Shown here: positions 29,381 through 63,449 of the stretch, piece by piece
How positions within the stretch are numbered: the first letter of the stretch is position 1
Layout of the letters: each line of letters opens with the position of its first letter
Virus record (IMG/VR): IMGVR_UViG_3300027805_000011
Coordinates: 3,017-67,016 of that record
Reading direction: 5' to 3' (one strand)
Source: a virus
Length of the DNA stretch: 64,000 nt
Position numbers and translations under genes: made by a program
Notes under the pieces: model-generated
The model's database searches: none
What the model was told of the DNA's origin: nothing
What the model saw: the letters and a program-made list of their open reading frames with translations, nothing else

Positions 29381-31963
29381 ATGGCACGCTCATTCATAGA
29401 TCCCTCACTCGTAGCGATGGCGGTTGAACCGGCCGCGCCGCCTTGGAACTGGAATCCTGGGGCGACGTTTGTGCAGGCGTTTAATGACGCGCAGTCTCTT
29501 CAAATCAAGCGGGAAGAGATGGAAAACGAACGGCAGATCATGGAGATCTTGTTGCCATATAAGATCGAAAAAGCGAAGTGGGATATTTCAAATCTCAAAG
29601 CTGACGTGAATCTTGCCAAAGCTGTTGAACGGGAGAGAGCGGCTAACGTCAGCTATAAAAATGCGATGGCGGAAGAGATTCGTAGAGGCCGTGGTCGGGG
29701 TAGTAATGCCTCCGCTCAATGGCTTGGGCCGGGTAAAGGTTTCTCATCTGGCTCTACTGGTGGTGACGCCTCTAAATATAACATTGATCGATCGGGGCTT
29801 CCGGTGGTTGAGCCTGATTTTACGGTGGATGGTGAAGAGCCTTCGGATGAGGAGCCGTGGGATAACGCCAATCCTAATGACTTTGAAAGGCTTCCAGACT
29901 TAGGAAAACCCGTCGAAGATATGCCGGCTGACCCAGTCGAAACGTCTTCCAATAATCCTCTTCGGCCCGAAGACCCGGCGGCAATTTTTGCTGATCTCAA
30001 TACCACTCCGGGTGAGTTGATGCCGCGTCAATCGGAAGGCTGGGCCAATCCTTTGGCGCAGATTGATGAAGACGCCGCGAGTGTTCCTATCGGAGCACAA
30101 AAGTTCGACACGGGGTTGGCTGACACGACGACGCCTTCAAATCTTTCCGAAGACGCCACGGACAGACTAAACCGTATCGTCGGACCTGTGCCGGAACAGA
30201 CCGCGCAAGAGCCGACCAAAGACGAGCAAATTCTCCAGGATGTCCTAGGGCGGTATAAGACTTTGCAGCAGAACCGTAATGCTGATTTCGAATCTGCCGC
30301 GATGCAGAGCGGACGAGTGGATTTGCGTCCCATAGAAAAATTCTACAAGGACGAGGAACTCGCGCTGTTCCAAGAAGCCGATGCTGTGGTCACGCCTTTG
30401 GTGGCAGGACTATCCCCCGCCGCGCAGGATTCTTACCTCAAGCAAACCACCGCCGCGCGGCCCGTCTTCCCGCTTACCGCCTACAACCGCGCTATGGCAA
30501 TGGACGAAAGATCCAAGGCCAATCCGCCAGCGGAAAATCCGGCTGACCTCTACAAGCAAAAAGAAAGTCTCATCACTGCATACAACGCCGAAGGACGCGA
30601 CATCTACGCCGACCCAGATGGACGGGCAAAATTAAATTCATTAGATAGCCGGATAAAACGTGCGGAAACCGCTTCGGGAACCGAGTTTCCCTCGGCATGG
30701 GATAAGGTCACCGAGACGTTTACCAACGAAGCGTTTCTTGAATCCAAACGCAAGTTGCGTGAACCGGAGTTCAATTACCTAGGTCGTCAAGTAAACAGCG
30801 GAGAGATCGACAAGCTAGTGCAAAATGAAGTGCTGCGGCGCAACGAGCTCCTGACTTCACCGGAGCTCCGGAACCAGCTTCGGGTGACACGGGACAGCTA
30901 CACGGTTTACGACAAAAACGATCGCGTGGACCGCGATGCAACCAATGCCGAACGGCAGCGCCAGCTTGCCACATTGGCCCCGAACGAACCTTACGAAGCC
31001 GAAGACGGTTCGATCAAGACGTGGAGTCCTAGGGCTGAACGTCCGAAGCGGGAAGCAGCAGCCGCCCAACCCAAACCGCTGTCGCTTGTCGATGAAATCA
31101 ACCAAGCTGCGGAAGCGGATCGTCGGGACCGCACGGTGCGTAGCTTGCAGCCCAAGTTTGAGCAGAGAAAAGCGGAGCAAGACGAACGGATTGCAAAAGC
31201 TGAACGGCGTCAGAAAATACAGAATCTCAACGGCGAAAAAGCTAGAATCGATAAAGCTGTCCGCGAGTCCGGGCTGGGGGAAGACTCTGATGTGATCCAA
31301 CGGGCTAGGGCGGAGCAAGCGAGGATACAGTCGGAATTGGATAGTCTACAAGGGGAACCTGAAGTTGAATCGCAAGGCAGCAGCGGGGAAACAAAGAAAG
31401 AAACACCTACCCGAATTCAAGGTGGTCTAGACTTCGGCCTAGGAGAAACTATTTCCAAACTCCTAACCCCCGAAGAGTCTTCTGATCCAGAAATCCGCGA
31501 TGAGTTCGCCAAAAACTTCAGTTGGAGGTATGACGGCAAACCACCTAAGATTGTAAAACTCGGGGCCGATCCTTTTTCTAAAGATAGTCGAAAATATCTA
31601 GACGAAACGTGGCCTGTTCCGGACGGTAAGCCTGAAGGTAAATTCACCCTTCTTAAAGTAAACGGAAATTGGTATGCGGAGGAAAGAGAGCCTACTTCTC
31701 AAAAAAGAAAAATCGTAGAGCGTTTGGCGAGGCGAGCCGAAGATCCTGATGAAGCGCCTAAGTTGAATAATCTAGAGCGGGCAATCTTAGAGAAAGAAGG
31801 ATATTATCAACCTTCTGAAGAGCCGGAATCGCGTCGTCAAGGCGCGGGAGCCGCTAACATGTTGGGTGACGCCGTAAACGCCATTTACGGCTGGAAATAT
31901 GATGGCAGAGAACCTGGCCCTTGGTGGCAGGGATCTCGAATCTACAAGAAACGGGAGCAATAG
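29381..31963 (+). CDS. Internal virion / ejection protein 2
   Basis: 860 aa, charged and low-complexity, lying between ejection proteins 1 and 3. Confidence 0.6.
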   Translation: MARSFIDPSLVAMAVEPAAPPWNWNPGATFVQAFNDAQSLQIKREEMENERQIMEILLPYKIEKAKWDISNLKADVNLAKAVERERAANVSYKNAMAEEIRRGRGRGSNASAQWLGPGKGFSSGSTGGDASKYNIDRSGLPVVEPDFTVDGEEPSDEEPWDNANPNDFERLPDLGKPVEDMPADPVETSSNNPLRPEDPAAIFADLNTTPGELMPRQSEGWANPLAQIDEDAASVPIGAQKFDTGLADTTTPSNLSEDATDRLNRIVGPVPEQTAQEPTKDEQILQDVLGRYKTLQQNRNADFESAAMQSGRVDLRPIEKFYKDEELALFQEADAVVTPLVAGLSPAAQDSYLKQTTAARPVFPLTAYNRAMAMDERSKANPPAENPADLYKQKESLITAYNAEGRDIYADPDGRAKLNSLDSRIKRAETASGTEFPSAWDKVTETFTNEAFLESKRKLREPEFNYLGRQVNSGEIDKLVQNEVLRRNELLTSPELRNQLRVTRDSYTVYDKNDRVDRDATNAERQRQLATLAPNEPYEAEDGSIKTWSPRAERPKREAAAAQPKPLSLVDEINQAAEADRRDRTVRSLQPKFEQRKAEQDERIAKAERRQKIQNLNGEKARIDKAVRESGLGEDSDVIQRARAEQARIQSELDSLQGEPEVESQGSSGETKKETPTRIQGGLDFGLGETISKLLTPEESSDPEIRDEFAKNFSWRYDGKPPKIVKLGADPFSKDSRKYLDETWPVPDGKPEGKFTLLKVNGNWYAEEREPTSQKRKIVERLARRAEDPDEAPKLNNLERAILEKEGYYQPSEEPESRRQGAGAANMLGDAVNAIYGWKYDGREPGPWWQGSRIYKKREQ

Positions 31964-32005
31964 GTAATAACAGCGCAAGATAAGCGTTCTGCGCTATATT
32001 AACGG

Positions 32006-62055: not shown

Positions 62056-62072
62056 ATCAGGTGGTGGAGTTA

Positions 62073-63449
62073 TTATTTACGGTAATGTTTGGAGACGATG
62101 GCTTCGGCTCCCAGCGGGAGATCCGGAGCCCAAATTGGTGGGGTCGACATGATTTCTTCGATCACTTGGCGGTGATCTTCGGCGTCATACTCATCGACAA
62201 GGACGACGACTTCGTCGTGGATACGCATGAGGATTTCATAACCGGCGTCTTCTAGGGCGCAGCAGCGGTCCATGAAGACATCGCGGGCAAGCGCCTGCGT
62301 GGCATTTTCTGCGAGCAGACCGCCGTAGAGTTTCACGTCCATGAGCTTCCCGAGCCGCGGGAGCTTGGCGACAATGCTCCCGGTGACGCGGCGAACATCG
62401 CGGTAGACGAGTTCTCGTCCGGAGGGTAGGGGGATGGTCAGTTCTCTGTCGTTCGGGTCGGTGGCGATGCGGAGCGCACGATCGAGCTTGGCCCAGAGTG
62501 CGGTGATCTTCGGGGACGACTCGCGGTAGGACTGCACAATTTGTTGCGATTCCTGTGAGGTAATGTCGAGTCCCGCCAGCATCTTGGCGACGAGTTGGAA
62601 CTTGGCCGCACCGCAACCGTAGCCGAGTCCTAGGACGCGGGCCTTGGCCAGAAAGCGCATCTTCGGGTCCACGTCCTTGAGCGGACGAGGATCGTTGTAG
62701 CCCATCGTCGCTCTGGCGTGCGCCTCGTAGATGTCGATACCGGAGGCGATCAGTTTGAGGAGATCCTTGTCGCCCGCGAGGTAGGGGAGGCAGCGTGCTT
62801 CGATCTGCGCGAGGTCGCAGATGATGAGCGTATTGCCCTTCGGTGCCTCGATGAGGTTGCGGATGTCGACGCCGGCCACTTCGCCCTTGGGGATATTCTG
62901 GGCATTCCAGCCGCCGCCTCCGCTATCCCGTCCGGTCGTGGCACCGAAGTATTTGAGTTCGTAGCCCATCCGGCCGTCCGGCCGCGTCCGGGCGATCATC
63001 GCCTGCACCGTCTTGAGATGTTTATTGGCCTTGCGGTAGTCGCGCACGGCGCGGACCCACGGGAATTGGTCGGCGAACTCGGCTTCCCATGCCGCGCCCT
63101 CGGGATCTTTCTCCGCGAAAGACTTCGGTGAGCGGATGCCCTCCTTCTCGCACTGGTCGCGGATTGCTTGCAGGGAGAGGGGAGGATACTCGCCGCCGAT
63201 CCACGGCAGGAGAGCTTCGGTCCGGCGCTTCTCCTCGATGAGCTTGGCTTCCGCGGCCTTGAGCTTCTCCATATTGACTGGCACTCCGCGCATTCCCATC
63301 TCGCGGGTCATGCGGGAAATCCGCCACTCATGGTCGGGCATCTTGTGTGCGTGCTCCTTCCAGAGCAGGAAGGTGGCCTTGGCGTCGTAGAGTGCGTAGC
63401 GGGCGACTTCTTTTTTGAAGTCGGGCGTCATGTAGGGTGACTTAGGCAC
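62073..63449 (-). CDS. polA: Family A DNA polymerase, part carrying ExoIII and the polymerase domain
   Basis: YALYDA (ExoIII), TGR.SG, DLAQIEAR (motif A), RFLAKARVLGLGYG (motif B), IHDE (motif C). Confidence 0.92.
   Translation of the reverse strand: MPKSPYMTPDFKKEVARYALYDAKATFLLWKEHAHKMPDHEWRISRMTREMGMRGVPVNMEKLKAAEAKLIEEKRRTEALLPWIGGEYPPLSLQAIRDQCEKEGIRSPKSFAEKDPEGAAWEAEFADQFPWVRAVRDYRKANKHLKTVQAMIARTRPDGRMGYELKYFGATTGRDSGGGGWNAQNIPKGEVAGVDIRNLIEAPKGNTLIICDLAQIEARCLPYLAGDKDLLKLIASGIDIYEAHARATMGYNDPRPLKDVDPKMRFLAKARVLGLGYGCGAAKFQLVAKMLAGLDITSQESQQIVQSYRESSPKITALWAKLDRALRIATDPNDRELTIPLPSGRELVYRDVRRVTGSIVAKLPRLGKLMDVKLYGGLLAENATQALARDVFMDRCCALEDAGYEILMRIHDEVVVLVDEYDAEDHRQVIEEIMSTPPIWAPDLPLGAEAIVSKHYRK

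Follow-up and report, generated by a model that had tools for sequence, protein, structure and literature searches.

An excess of the CCTAGG palindrome in two modules of an uncultured freshwater phage genome

Iterated words in bacterial and phage genomes

Over-represented palindromes are rare exceptions, and phages as a rule purge such words. It is known that phages avoid restriction-site palindromes, and CCTAGG is the target of restriction-modification systems of the AvrII/BlnI type. The stoperators of cluster A mycobacteriophages are asymmetric, oriented with transcription and served by a known repressor, and matS/MatP and the SlmA-binding sites (SBS) are systems of 12-13-bp words on Mb-scale bacterial chromosomes. 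The function of HIP1 (GCGATCGC) is, to our knowledge, still unresolved after decades. HIP1 and alternate highly iterated palindromes have been described in cyanobacteria (Elhai 2015, PMC4390886; Xu, Lawrence & Durand 2018, PMC5861425).

The genome studied here, referred to as G000, belongs to an uncultured freshwater phage and is a circularly assembled complete record of 71,476 bp (71.5 kb). The window, i.e. the whole stretch of DNA that was analysed, has 64,000 nucleotides (positions 3,017 to 67,016 of record IMGVR_UViG_3300027805_000011), and all positions below are window positions unless the record is named. Its iterated word, YCCTAGGR, is in several respects similar to HIP1. Both are short GC-rich palindromes in many-fold excess, both occur within coding DNA in several frames by virtue of codon and dipeptide choice (with intergenic copies in the phage), and both are lineage-specific, other lineages having different words or none. 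For both words the conservation of sites between related genomes is above neutral expectation (for HIP1 see Xu et al. 2018, PMC5861425), and the same rival drives, selection and methylation-linked repair, are in question. Unlike HIP1, YCCTAGGR is carried by a phage and not by a bacterial chromosome, it is limited to two modules and is not distributed genome-wide, and its spacing looks random and shows no periodicity (CV 1.08), although a 28-kb arc with 33 sites is too small for the 10-90-kb test used for the periodic spacing of HIP1 (Xu et al. 2018, PMC5861425). A methyltransferase specific for the word or its core in the same genome has been associated with words of this kind (Elhai 2015, PMC4390886); no cognate methyltransferase was found in the phage record: six-frame searches of the record for PF00145, PF01555 and PF03852 gave no methyltransferase or Vsr, and of methyltransferase-like genes there is just one, a generic Methyltransf_11 shared with CCTAGG-poor relatives. 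What is new here is an iterated-palindrome excess that is confined to modules of one genome.

Stoperators, matS and SBS are, like YCCTAGGR, iterated, often intragenic and restricted to or excluded from a domain, and they are protein-binding words. YCCTAGGR, with 29 of its 35 sites inside genes, differs from stoperators in being symmetric, and from all three in that the edges of its domain are recombination junctions. As for restriction-site avoidance, the backbone of the genome and the relatives behave as avoidance predicts, whereas the arc is opposite in sign and for one word only; relaxed avoidance of CCTAGG would yield about 3 sites, compared with the 33 found in the arc.

The excess of CCTAGG and its spelling

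Exact matching found 35 copies of CCTAGG, every one between positions 30244 and 62634 (33260-65650 of the record) and none in the rest of the 71,476-bp record. All 35 coordinates listed in the original prediction, which was made by reading the sequence, were exact matches, and the word is indeed absent from positions 1-30243. Dinucleotide shuffles gave 6.5 +/- 2.6 copies with a maximum of 14. After 1000 synonymous shuffles within genes the expectation for the arc was 8.7 +/- 1.6 copies (maximum 15), a figure which includes the six intergenic copies that were left unshuffled. The right-hand excess is highly significant and persists under this codon-aware null. Outside the arc 2.0 copies were expected from the synonymous shuffles, and the left-hand zero on its own is short of significance (P = 0.10); it agrees with the habit of the family, since the backbone and all relatives carry 0-2 copies per ~70 kb, compared with 11-17 for the reversed control word. 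YCCTAGGR is about 10-fold over-represented in a phage that purged almost all short palindromes, GTAC, CTGCAG, AAGCTT, CTCGAG, GGCGCC and others being near-absent. The tetramer CTAG occurs 56 times to the right of 30 kb and 13 times to the left, and 35 of those 56 (62%) lie within CCTAGG, that is more than half, as had been claimed.

The coding copies (n = 29) are read either as NNC-CTA-GGN (Leu-Gly, 17 sites) or as CCT-AGG (Pro-Arg, 12 sites), and the six intergenic copies are a slight over-representation (6/35 against 8.2% non-coding DNA, P = 0.06). The earlier claim that the sites are built from the rare codon CTA is therefore correct for the 17 Leu-Gly sites and incomplete, as it omits the Pro-Arg and the intergenic copies. 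CCTAGG was the spelling at 12 of 38 Pro-Arg positions in the arc compared with 0 of 41 outside, and at 17 of 67 X-Leu-Gly positions compared with 0 of 72 (0/113 outside for the two combined), while C-CTN-GG contexts used CTA in 17 of 28 cases in the arc and in 0 of 29 outside. In relation to codon backgrounds, the +1 position is a purine in 16 of 17 frame-2 sites (P = 1e-6) and in 12 of 12 frame-0 sites, the latter having T at -1 in 10 of 12 (P = 2e-7). The extended word is YCCTAGGR, an 8-bp symmetric unit.

A rare codon is present in every coding site, TAG stands in the +1 frame on both strands, and the palindrome is identical in the mRNAs of both arms, all of which could point to a translational or RNA-level signal, for example pausing at CTA and AGG, off-frame TAG stops or a CCUAGG motif in mRNA. 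However, apart from CCTAGG neither codon is raised in the arc (CTA 35 vs 37, AGG 35 vs 54), the remaining NCTAGN words are at background level, six sites are intergenic, no tRNA genes are encoded by the phage, and the Y...R flanks are symmetric in either reading frame, as expected when a dimer reads double-stranded DNA. We regard such a signal as very improbable.

At conserved Leu-Gly positions relatives use CTC, CTG or CTT followed by GGT or GGC, and in G000 up to three codons per site were altered (GCG CTC GGT to GCC CTA GGA). Behind some sites are amino-acid changes at orthologous positions (DPSA to DPRA, AAIR to AALG). These comparisons show an origin of sites through multi-codon synonymous and some amino-acid-changing substitutions. 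In the near-relative lineage, which is 95-97% identical in the arc, 31 of 33 sites are intact. The contig L013 keeps 25 of 26 sites where local phase-matched hexamers predict 20.5 (P = 0.013), which, with one comparator lineage, gives moderate support for conservation, and L016 keeps six of seven further sites. Sites are kept even inside 65-85% identical stretches with substitutions immediately beside them, and two lineage-private gains or losses were detected; together with the above-neutral conservation these suggest that the pressure is still acting now. The DNA-level pressure on CCTAGG that had been proposed at the outset is thus upheld: the codon-aware nulls, the confinement of rare CTA and AGG to the word and the symmetric Y/R flanks agree, and the multi-nucleotide and amino-acid-changing origins and the conservation above local background are further evidence for it.

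Modules, junctions and relatives

The segments and single sites discussed below are the following.

1 to 30243, plus strand: structural arm without CCTAGG; 0 of 66 potential coding positions realised in its backbone part
27566 to 29377, plus strand: 603-aa gene immediately left of the rich region; 0 of 12 potential positions
29357 to 30929, plus strand: left junction zone inside the 848/860-aa gene
30244 to 43013: part A, CCTAGG-rich, 22 sites; 4 of them are in the 848/860-aa virion gene, whose C-terminal two thirds belong to this part, and 2 are in a 189/197-aa gene, of which it covers the first ~150 bp
32006 to 42853: gene of the 3615-aa giant virion/ejection-type protein in part A, 16 sites; GC 0.61, somewhat richer
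43034 to 47445, minus strand: conserved middle between A and B, no CCTAGG, 0 of 11 potential positions; small minus-strand genes, a Methyltransf_11 protein and a GT34-like protein
47878 to 57911: part B, CCTAGG-rich, 11 sites (6 coding, 5 intergenic or at the edge); minus-strand lineage-specific early-gene block with a 535-aa protein, an AAA_5 ATPase, an Amidoligase_2 with a GAT-like partner, zinc-ribbon proteins and small ORFans
56783 to 56798: intergenic site within the perfect 16-bp palindrome TTCGTCCTAGGACGAA, 114 nt upstream of an early gene
57.5 to 59.3 kb: gene-poor, low-GC, repeat-rich region, in which the L013 contig also ends
58919 to 58924: background site in a conserved non-coding AAGTTCCC-repeat element, also in the CCTAGG-poor L031
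62629 to 62634, minus strand: background site where the DNA polymerase gene encodes a conserved Arg-Val-Leu-Gly, also in the CCTAGG-poor L025

The two ends of the G000 record have an imperfect overlap and divide a gene between them, and in the relative G001 a 123-bp 'DTR' lies within a gene-equivalent position.

The density of CCTAGG in parts A and B is ~1.2 per kb and 33% of potential coding positions are realised, compared with 0 of 100 potential positions in the backbone. DNA that is unalignable to the backbone relative G004 holds 30 of the 35 sites, three more lie 180 bp or less from the edges of such segments, and the last two are common to CCTAGG-poor relatives (most relatives have CCCAGG at the position of site 62629). 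No DNA homology to G004 was found from ~27065 to 42829, and around part B it ends at 47446 and returns at ~57834; the real excess ends at ~57.9 kb, less than 100 bp from this return. In relation to the near relative, part A is 94-97% identical to L013 and part B ~95% identical to L013/L016. At the left edge the identity to L013 drops from 96% to 65-90%, after which the sequences are unalignable. The left junction zone is itself patchy (65-91%), flanked by unalignable DNA on the left and 96-99% identical DNA on the right, and the first two sites, 30244 and 30778, fall in it and are both kept in L013. The edges of the excess coincide with recombination or mosaic junctions, the very coincidence that the original prediction had named as counting against its own reading.

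Segments without sites are of different kinds. The structural arm is 82-93% identical to G004 at the DNA level where alignable, and it contains ~11 kb of other variable DNA, likewise without sites. The site-free 603-aa gene (P = 0.008) is non-homologous to G004 and has only 73% amino-acid identity to L013. The conserved middle (4.4 kb), whose lack of sites has P = 0.012 at the realisation rate of A and B, is a recombination patchwork, and its depth in run X3 is 30-180x compared with 2-12x for A and B. Each of 16 relatives, including six complete genomes, has 0-2 copies of CCTAGG; one of them has ~85% nucleotide identity across the right boundary and is still CCTAGG-poor, and where module genes have distant homologues, in G001 and L031 (49-60% amino-acid identity), these show no enrichment. 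The identity between G000 and L013 is 95-97% over the arc and 88% in a conserved structural gene, for which G000, L013 and G004 are about equidistant. The arc has a history separate from that of the structural arm and, judging by these identities, a more recent one. The RSCU distance between the giant gene and part B is 0.99, part B resembling other early genes, and no compositional signature common to A and B other than CCTAGG was found.

In ENA and JGI there are independent contigs, obtained from other samples, that run across the left junction and the arc with 99.98-100% identity, which shows that the junctions are not assembly artefacts. That the pattern comes from a chimeric assembly of two phages, or simply results from base composition or codon usage, could be argued from the metagenomic origin and imperfectly overlapping ends of the record and from the GC content of the giant gene, but it is scarcely credible in view of these contigs, of a second lineage with the same layout as G000, and of an excess that outlasts both dinucleotide and codon shuffles.

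The original prediction had interpreted the sites as a signal with positional polarity along the physical DNA, serving entry, packaging or anti-defence at injection. Under such a model the arc would enter or be packaged first. On the circular map the arc is one unbroken stretch (the probability that 35 random points cluster in an arc of such size on a circle is ~ 7e-11), and it adjoins the region at 57.5-59.3 kb, a possible terminus or origin region where the L013 contig ends. However, the density of sites follows module ancestry, patchy by module and ungraded: potential positions are empty in the conserved middle and the 603-aa gene compared with 33% filled in A and B, the boundaries are mosaic junctions, the two 'terminal' sites are background, and relatives of the same architecture lack these sites. 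We consider a polarity signal improbable, and of the original interpretation the DNA-level pressure stands while the polarity does not. As the excess is found only in two lineage-specific modules, the half-genome pattern marks recombination boundaries and no functional gradient.

Possible origin and function of the sites

The explanation that we somewhat favour is that the HIP1-like YCCTAGGR became frequent within a single lineage and today marks the modules that came from it. The word would have been built up by directional DNA-level pressure in one deep-branching lineage of a freshwater podovirus-like phage family, with selection for a palindrome-reading dimeric factor as a slightly likelier driver than methylation-linked biased repair. 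G000 would have inherited two modules from this lineage, the ejection-protein genes and the early-gene block, while the structural arm, the start of the replication arm and the conserved middle would be part of, or homogenised with, the CCTAGG-avoiding backbone of many relatives. We infer that in the past the pressure acted on the whole donor genome; a search for a donor with genome-wide CCTAGG richness found none, the lineage being seen only in G000 and the L013 contig. Inheritance from one lineage also requires extra recombination events for the site-free 603-aa gene and conserved middle, and the signs of a persisting pressure fit a present function at least as well as a relic.

A present function specific to the modules is a tentative alternative, in which a dimeric reader encoded by phage or host would select YCCTAGGR in the ejection-protein and early-gene modules, where the sites might be operator-like or silencing sites, protective or regulatory marks on fast-evolving counter-defence modules, or recombination-promoting sites through which these modules diversify. 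It is in accordance with conservation above local background despite adjacent substitutions, with a word that is a symmetric 8-bp unit, and with the mild intergenic excess, including the 16-bp palindrome at 56783-56798, a site which is kept in L016 and which by its sequence would be the most operator-like of all. In addition, the 11 kb of novel DNA in the structural arm is site-free, so that 'foreign DNA' alone is no predictor, and the genome-wide donor was not found. On the other hand, the search for a reader was negative, since proteins specific to the block had no DNA-binding, methylase or nuclease matches, no HTH or repressor was recognised among the block genes, and a 132-aa reader candidate had no structural match. 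Most sites lie deep within a 10.8-kb late gene where an operator role is hard to imagine, the spacing looks random, and the arc's own recombination history accounts for the pattern without any regional role. It is rather doubtful that YCCTAGGR is an actively read 'module tag', the word being kept dense by a putative dimeric reader in the two fastest-evolving, defence-facing modules; such a tag might protect these modules or control them, or it might favour their linked exchange between backbones.

One phage with one host carries DNA of one ancestry with ~1.2 sites per kb and DNA of another ancestry with none, which is a clean natural experiment. The contrast separates the action of host or phage on all DNA today from a trait accumulated by a lineage, and in uncultured phages recombination junctions can be mapped by k-mer discontinuities of this kind. 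Should the sites have a reader at present, it would be a new participant in phage-host conflict or in the exchange of phage modules, and the 'module tag', if true, would be the first known iterated palindrome that marks mobile modules inside a virus genome and not the whole genome.

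Excess of CCTAGG and its extended form

A pattern search placed 35 copies of CCTAGG in the window, all between positions 30244 and 62634. The full IMG/VR virus record (71,476 bp, rated complete, of which the window is bases 3017-67016) holds the same 35 and none beyond them, and every coordinate listed in the original prediction is an exact match. Dinucleotide-preserving shuffles give an expectation of 6.5 +/- 2.6 copies with a maximum of 14. CTAG tetramers number 56 to the right of 30 kb versus 13 to the left, and it is correct that more than half of those on the right lie in CCTAGG (35/56), while other NCTAGN words stay at background level in both halves. 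When all 4-6-mers were contrasted between the CCTAGG-bearing region, here called the arc, and the rest of the genome, CCTAGG and its sub-words alone stood out. Spacing of the sites is random (CV 1.08). Most 6-bp palindromes are purged in both halves of the genome: CTGCAG, AAGCTT, CTCGAG, GGCGCC, GCGCGC, TGCGCA, CCATGG, CACGTG, GCATGC and others occur in 0-1 copies versus 5-20 expected, GTAC is absent from the genome, and all relatives show the same general purge. Since this purge is genome-wide, zero CCTAGG is the family norm and the anomaly is the 35 copies. CCGCGG is tolerated and about equal between the regions (30 vs 29 copies), so its conversion to CCTAGG was rejected as a source of the sites, as was a by-product of Dcm/CCWGG avoidance, because CCWGG-containing 5-mers are the same in both regions.

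Gene calls were taken from the public collection for the window's phage, with strand-consistent ORFs added elsewhere, and synonymous codons were shuffled within each gene in 1000 rounds, intergenic sites being immovable. Under this null 8.7 +/- 1.6 copies are expected in the arc (maximum 15; six are the fixed intergenic ones) versus the 35 observed, so the excess survives a codon-aware comparison; in the rest of the genome 2.0 are expected, with P(0) = 0.10. It had been proposed that within genes the word is often built on Leu-Gly with the rare codon CTA, which holds for 17 sites (NNC-CTA-GGN) and is incomplete, as 12 more are CCT-AGG (Pro-Arg) and six are intergenic. The word spells 12/38 Pro-Arg and 17/67 X-Leu-Gly positions in the arc versus 0/41 and 0/72 outside, and CTA is used in 17/28 C-CTN-GG contexts versus 0/29 outside. 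Apart from those in CCTAGG, CTA and AGG codons are not raised, which rules out a general rare-codon effect. A pyrimidine precedes the word at 31 of the 35 sites and a purine follows it at 34. Frame-2 sites have a +1 purine in 16/17 cases (codon-position background 0.37, P = 1e-6), and frame-0 sites have T at -1 in 10/12 (codon-position background 0.15, P = 2e-7) and a +1 purine in 12/12. These symmetric flanks indicate that the selected unit is the 8-bp palindrome YCCTAGGR, as would fit a symmetric dimer reading double-stranded DNA; a signal acting at the level of RNA or translation seems to us very improbable.

Genome organization and the patchwork of sites

The two ends of the record (1-478 and 70989-71466) match each other at 86% identity over 478 bp, and the break between them falls within a helicase-nuclease gene; its counterpart in the family member G001 codes for 806 aa, an SF2 helicase (ResIII + Helicase_C) joined to a DUF2800 PD-(D/E)XK-type nuclease. 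As the overlap is imperfect and a single gene is split, the assembly is effectively circular, probably closed across strain variation; the 123-bp 'DTR' of G001 likewise looks like an assembly overlap. Independent assemblies of the same phage from ENA (99.98%) and JGI (100%) samples include contigs that run across the left boundary and through the arc, so a chimeric assembly does not account for the pattern, and an artefact of any kind is hardly credible. On the circular map two arms lead away from each other at record ~4150 and meet at window ~43440.

Arms of the circular map
Plus-strand arm (+): terminase-like gene, then virion genes, then the giant gene
Minus-strand arm (-): recombinase-like gene, helicase-nuclease, split PolA, DUF5906 primase-helicase, dCMP deaminase, early genes

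No similarity to named phages was found with megablast and tblastn against GenBank phages, and a search of bacterial genomes with the terminase-like protein, made for host identity, found no prophage relatives. The first gene of the minus arm (window 3-1067, minus strand; G001 L007:7401-8687) has a weak, sub-threshold Phage_integrase match (24 bits vs cut-off 27). The giant gene, an ORF of 3615 aa, has the PHROG 'virion structural protein' as its sole match and no Pfam domain was found in it. The proteins related to it reach no more than 53% identity over 27% of the length and have polyvalent-protein domains, and on both these grounds an N4-like virion RNA polymerase was dropped as a candidate. 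Diverged copies of the giant gene were found neither among shorter proteins nor, above 53%, among full-length ones. The early block includes an Amidoligase_2 protein adjoining a class-II glutamine-amidotransferase-like protein and an AAA_5 ATPase with a 535-aa partner (window 53791-55992, 49315-50700), and a dCMP deaminase lies beside the primase-helicase (window 59300-59764); this set may serve nucleotide, DNA or protein modification chemistry. Between the deaminase gene and two small plus-strand genes is a non-coding stretch of 425 bp (window 58875-59299) with ~10 copies of AAGTTCCC/GGGAACTT in both orientations, where the contig of the near relative described below stops; it resembles an iteron array and could serve as an origin or regulatory hub. 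A palindromic box distinct from the CCTAGG word, TGTTCGGAT(G/A)CGAACA, occurs four times upstream of early genes (window 56724-57618).

Across the structural genes and at the beginning of the minus arm, the closest backbone relative, G004 (L053 is nearly identical), shares 92-97% of amino acids and is 82-93% identical in DNA. Two segments of the window cannot be aligned to it: A, at ~27.07-42.83 kb (603-aa, 848/860-aa and giant genes), and B, at ~47.45-57.83 kb. This unalignable DNA holds 30 of the 35 sites; sites 42998 and 43008 fall within the gene after the giant gene, in its opening ~150 bp, which are diverged, and 57906 is at the right edge, with 68% identity. The other two are listed below, together with the coding positions at which the word is realised.

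CCTAGG at potential coding positions (realised/potential), and background sites
848-aa gene: 4/7
Giant gene: 16/43
Start of the 189-aa gene: 2/3
Segment B: 6/28, plus intergenic sites
603-aa gene: 0/12 (P = 0.008 at the A+B rate)
Conserved middle between A and B, window 43.03-47.45 kb: 0/11 (P = 0.012 at the A+B rate)
Structural backbone: 0/66
Rest of the minus arm: 0/34
58919, background site: intergenic, in the conserved AAGTTCCC-repeat element; present in CCTAGG-poor L031
62629, background site: PolA gene; present in L025, CCCAGG in most relatives

As 58919 and 62629 are ordinary background, the real excess is 33 sites at window 30244-57911. A further ~11 kb of variable DNA in the structural arm has zero sites. 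The distribution of CCTAGG is a patchwork, not a gradient. The original prediction was of a signal with positional polarity, for example in DNA entry or packaging, and had named a simple recombination junction at the boundary as the finding that would speak against it. The left edge of the excess does fall where identity to the near relative drops, and the right edge within 100 bp of the point at which homology to G004 is regained, and density is patchy by segment, as seen in the empty 603-aa gene and conserved middle. The positional model is thus largely explained by mosaicism, and polarity of entry or packaging is improbable.

Sixteen relatives were found via the primase-helicase, the 860-aa protein and PolA, six of them complete genomes of ~66-74 kb; they have 0-2 CCTAGG each versus 11-17 for the reversed control word. 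One of the sixteen, a contig, has DNA ~82-87% identical across the right boundary. Distant homologues of segment B (49-60% aa; G001, L031) show no enrichment. One near relative was found, a 42.6-kb ENA contig (L013, L016, L056) 94-97% identical to window ~30.9-~58.9 kb. It carries the same arc sites as the window, and the 12.9 kb of structural arm that it includes contain zero CCTAGG. Its giant protein is 82 aa longer, and it has two genes absent from the window's phage, a Pyr_excise (T4 endonuclease V-like) gene (L013:29910-30323 / L016:7643-8056) and a 397-aa fused methyltransferase-like gene.

Origin, conservation and exchange of the sites

At positions orthologous to the Leu-Gly sites, six complete relatives encode a conserved Leu-Gly with CTC/CTG/CTT/TTG and GGT/GGC, and the window's phage has up to three adjacent codons synonymously altered. 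At 40126, for example, ACG GCG CTC GGT became ACC GCC CTA GGA, and 40438 is another multi-codon case. Elsewhere an amino-acid replacement was needed: DPSA of five relatives to DPRA (43008), AAIR to AALG (42634) and D-K/V/A-R-A to DPRA (39977). The sites are also conserved despite drift, as had been proposed for a check in relatives. Of the 26 sites that align between the window and L013, 25 are intact, where phase-matched hexamers lying within 300 bp predict 20.5 (P = 0.013). Some of the intact sites are in stretches only 65-85% identical and some have substitutions right beside the word, and L016 has 6/7 further sites intact. The few differences from the near relative are transitions (CCTAGG to CTTAGG or CCTAAG) or indels. 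Among one-off variants CCCAGG/CCTGGG alone are lower in the arc (6 vs 18), CTTAGG and TCTAGG not being depleted, and these counts show no clear mark of repair.

The window's phage, the L013 lineage and G004 are about equally far apart (88.1%, 86.6%, 85.4%) in a conserved structural gene (window 17095-18270), whereas in conserved genes within the arc the first two are 95-97% identical and the window's phage and G004 80-93%. This indicates that the arc was exchanged as a block between different backbones. A patch at window 45424-45830 is nearer to G004, which together with the identities within the arc indicates that conserved DNA inside the arc takes part in recombination with the population at large. 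Parts of the arc occur in ~20 freshwater runs. Contig depth in one lagoon or lake metagenome run is 30-180x over the conserved genes at the convergent end (window 42674-47342) versus 2-12x on A and B, so this cassette is common to many more-abundant relatives.

Possible mechanisms and comparison with other iterated palindromes

A strong directional pressure acting on the DNA itself gave rise to YCCTAGGR in the DNA of one lineage and keeps it there, and the half-genome distribution tracks ancestry. Nothing else sampled exceeds 60% amino-acid identity to segments A and B. We infer that the word would have accumulated while a deep-branching member of the family was evolving separately for a long time, that A and B would then have recombined onto the CCTAGG-avoiding backbone, and that conserved stretches within the block were probably homogenised afterwards with abundant relatives. 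Viral contigs were scanned for triple sites in search of CCTAGG-dense donor DNA, and the matches listed were unrelated contigs with different flanks. Four unrelated IMG/VR contigs (L088, L102, L135, L089) have dense, clumped CCTAGG, often in 23-bp or 12-bp steps; these clusters look like tandem coding repeats, not dispersed iterated words.

Three features tilt the balance towards selection for a dimeric reader, a protein recognising the word: the 8-bp symmetry, the replacement of amino acids at some sites, and conservation above the neutral level. A strong repair drive would, however, produce the same three. The record was searched for C5 or N4/N6 DNA methyltransferases and Vsr, and none is encoded; the sole methyltransferase-like gene of the phage is a generic Methyltransf_11 common to CCTAGG-poor relatives. 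Pfam and PHROG scans assigned no DNA-binding role to the block-specific proteins, nor did Atlas, AlphaFold and Foldseek to the 132-aa block protein. That YCCTAGGR has a present-day function specific to the modules is possible and rather unlikely. Such a function would fit the above-background conservation of sites, the copies between genes, one of which lies upstream of an early gene as a perfect 16-bp palindrome, the absence of sites from other foreign DNA, and a search that turned up no donor with the word genome-wide.

With pressure in one lineage followed by recombination as the preferred reading, the closest known case is HIP1, the highly iterated palindrome of cyanobacteria, with the alternate HIPs, and YCCTAGGR is a HIP-like phenomenon in a phage. 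For HIPs, Elhai 2015 (PMC4390886) has a model of biased repair that depends on methylation, and Xu et al. 2018 (PMC5861425) take the conservation of sites as a sign of selection for a role tied to chromosome structure. A literature search on CCTAGG over-representation in phages gave nothing relevant. What is new is the word itself, YCCTAGGR, and most of all its restriction, within a single genome, to modules that recombine; this restriction provides an internal control within that genome and dates the trait to one lineage.
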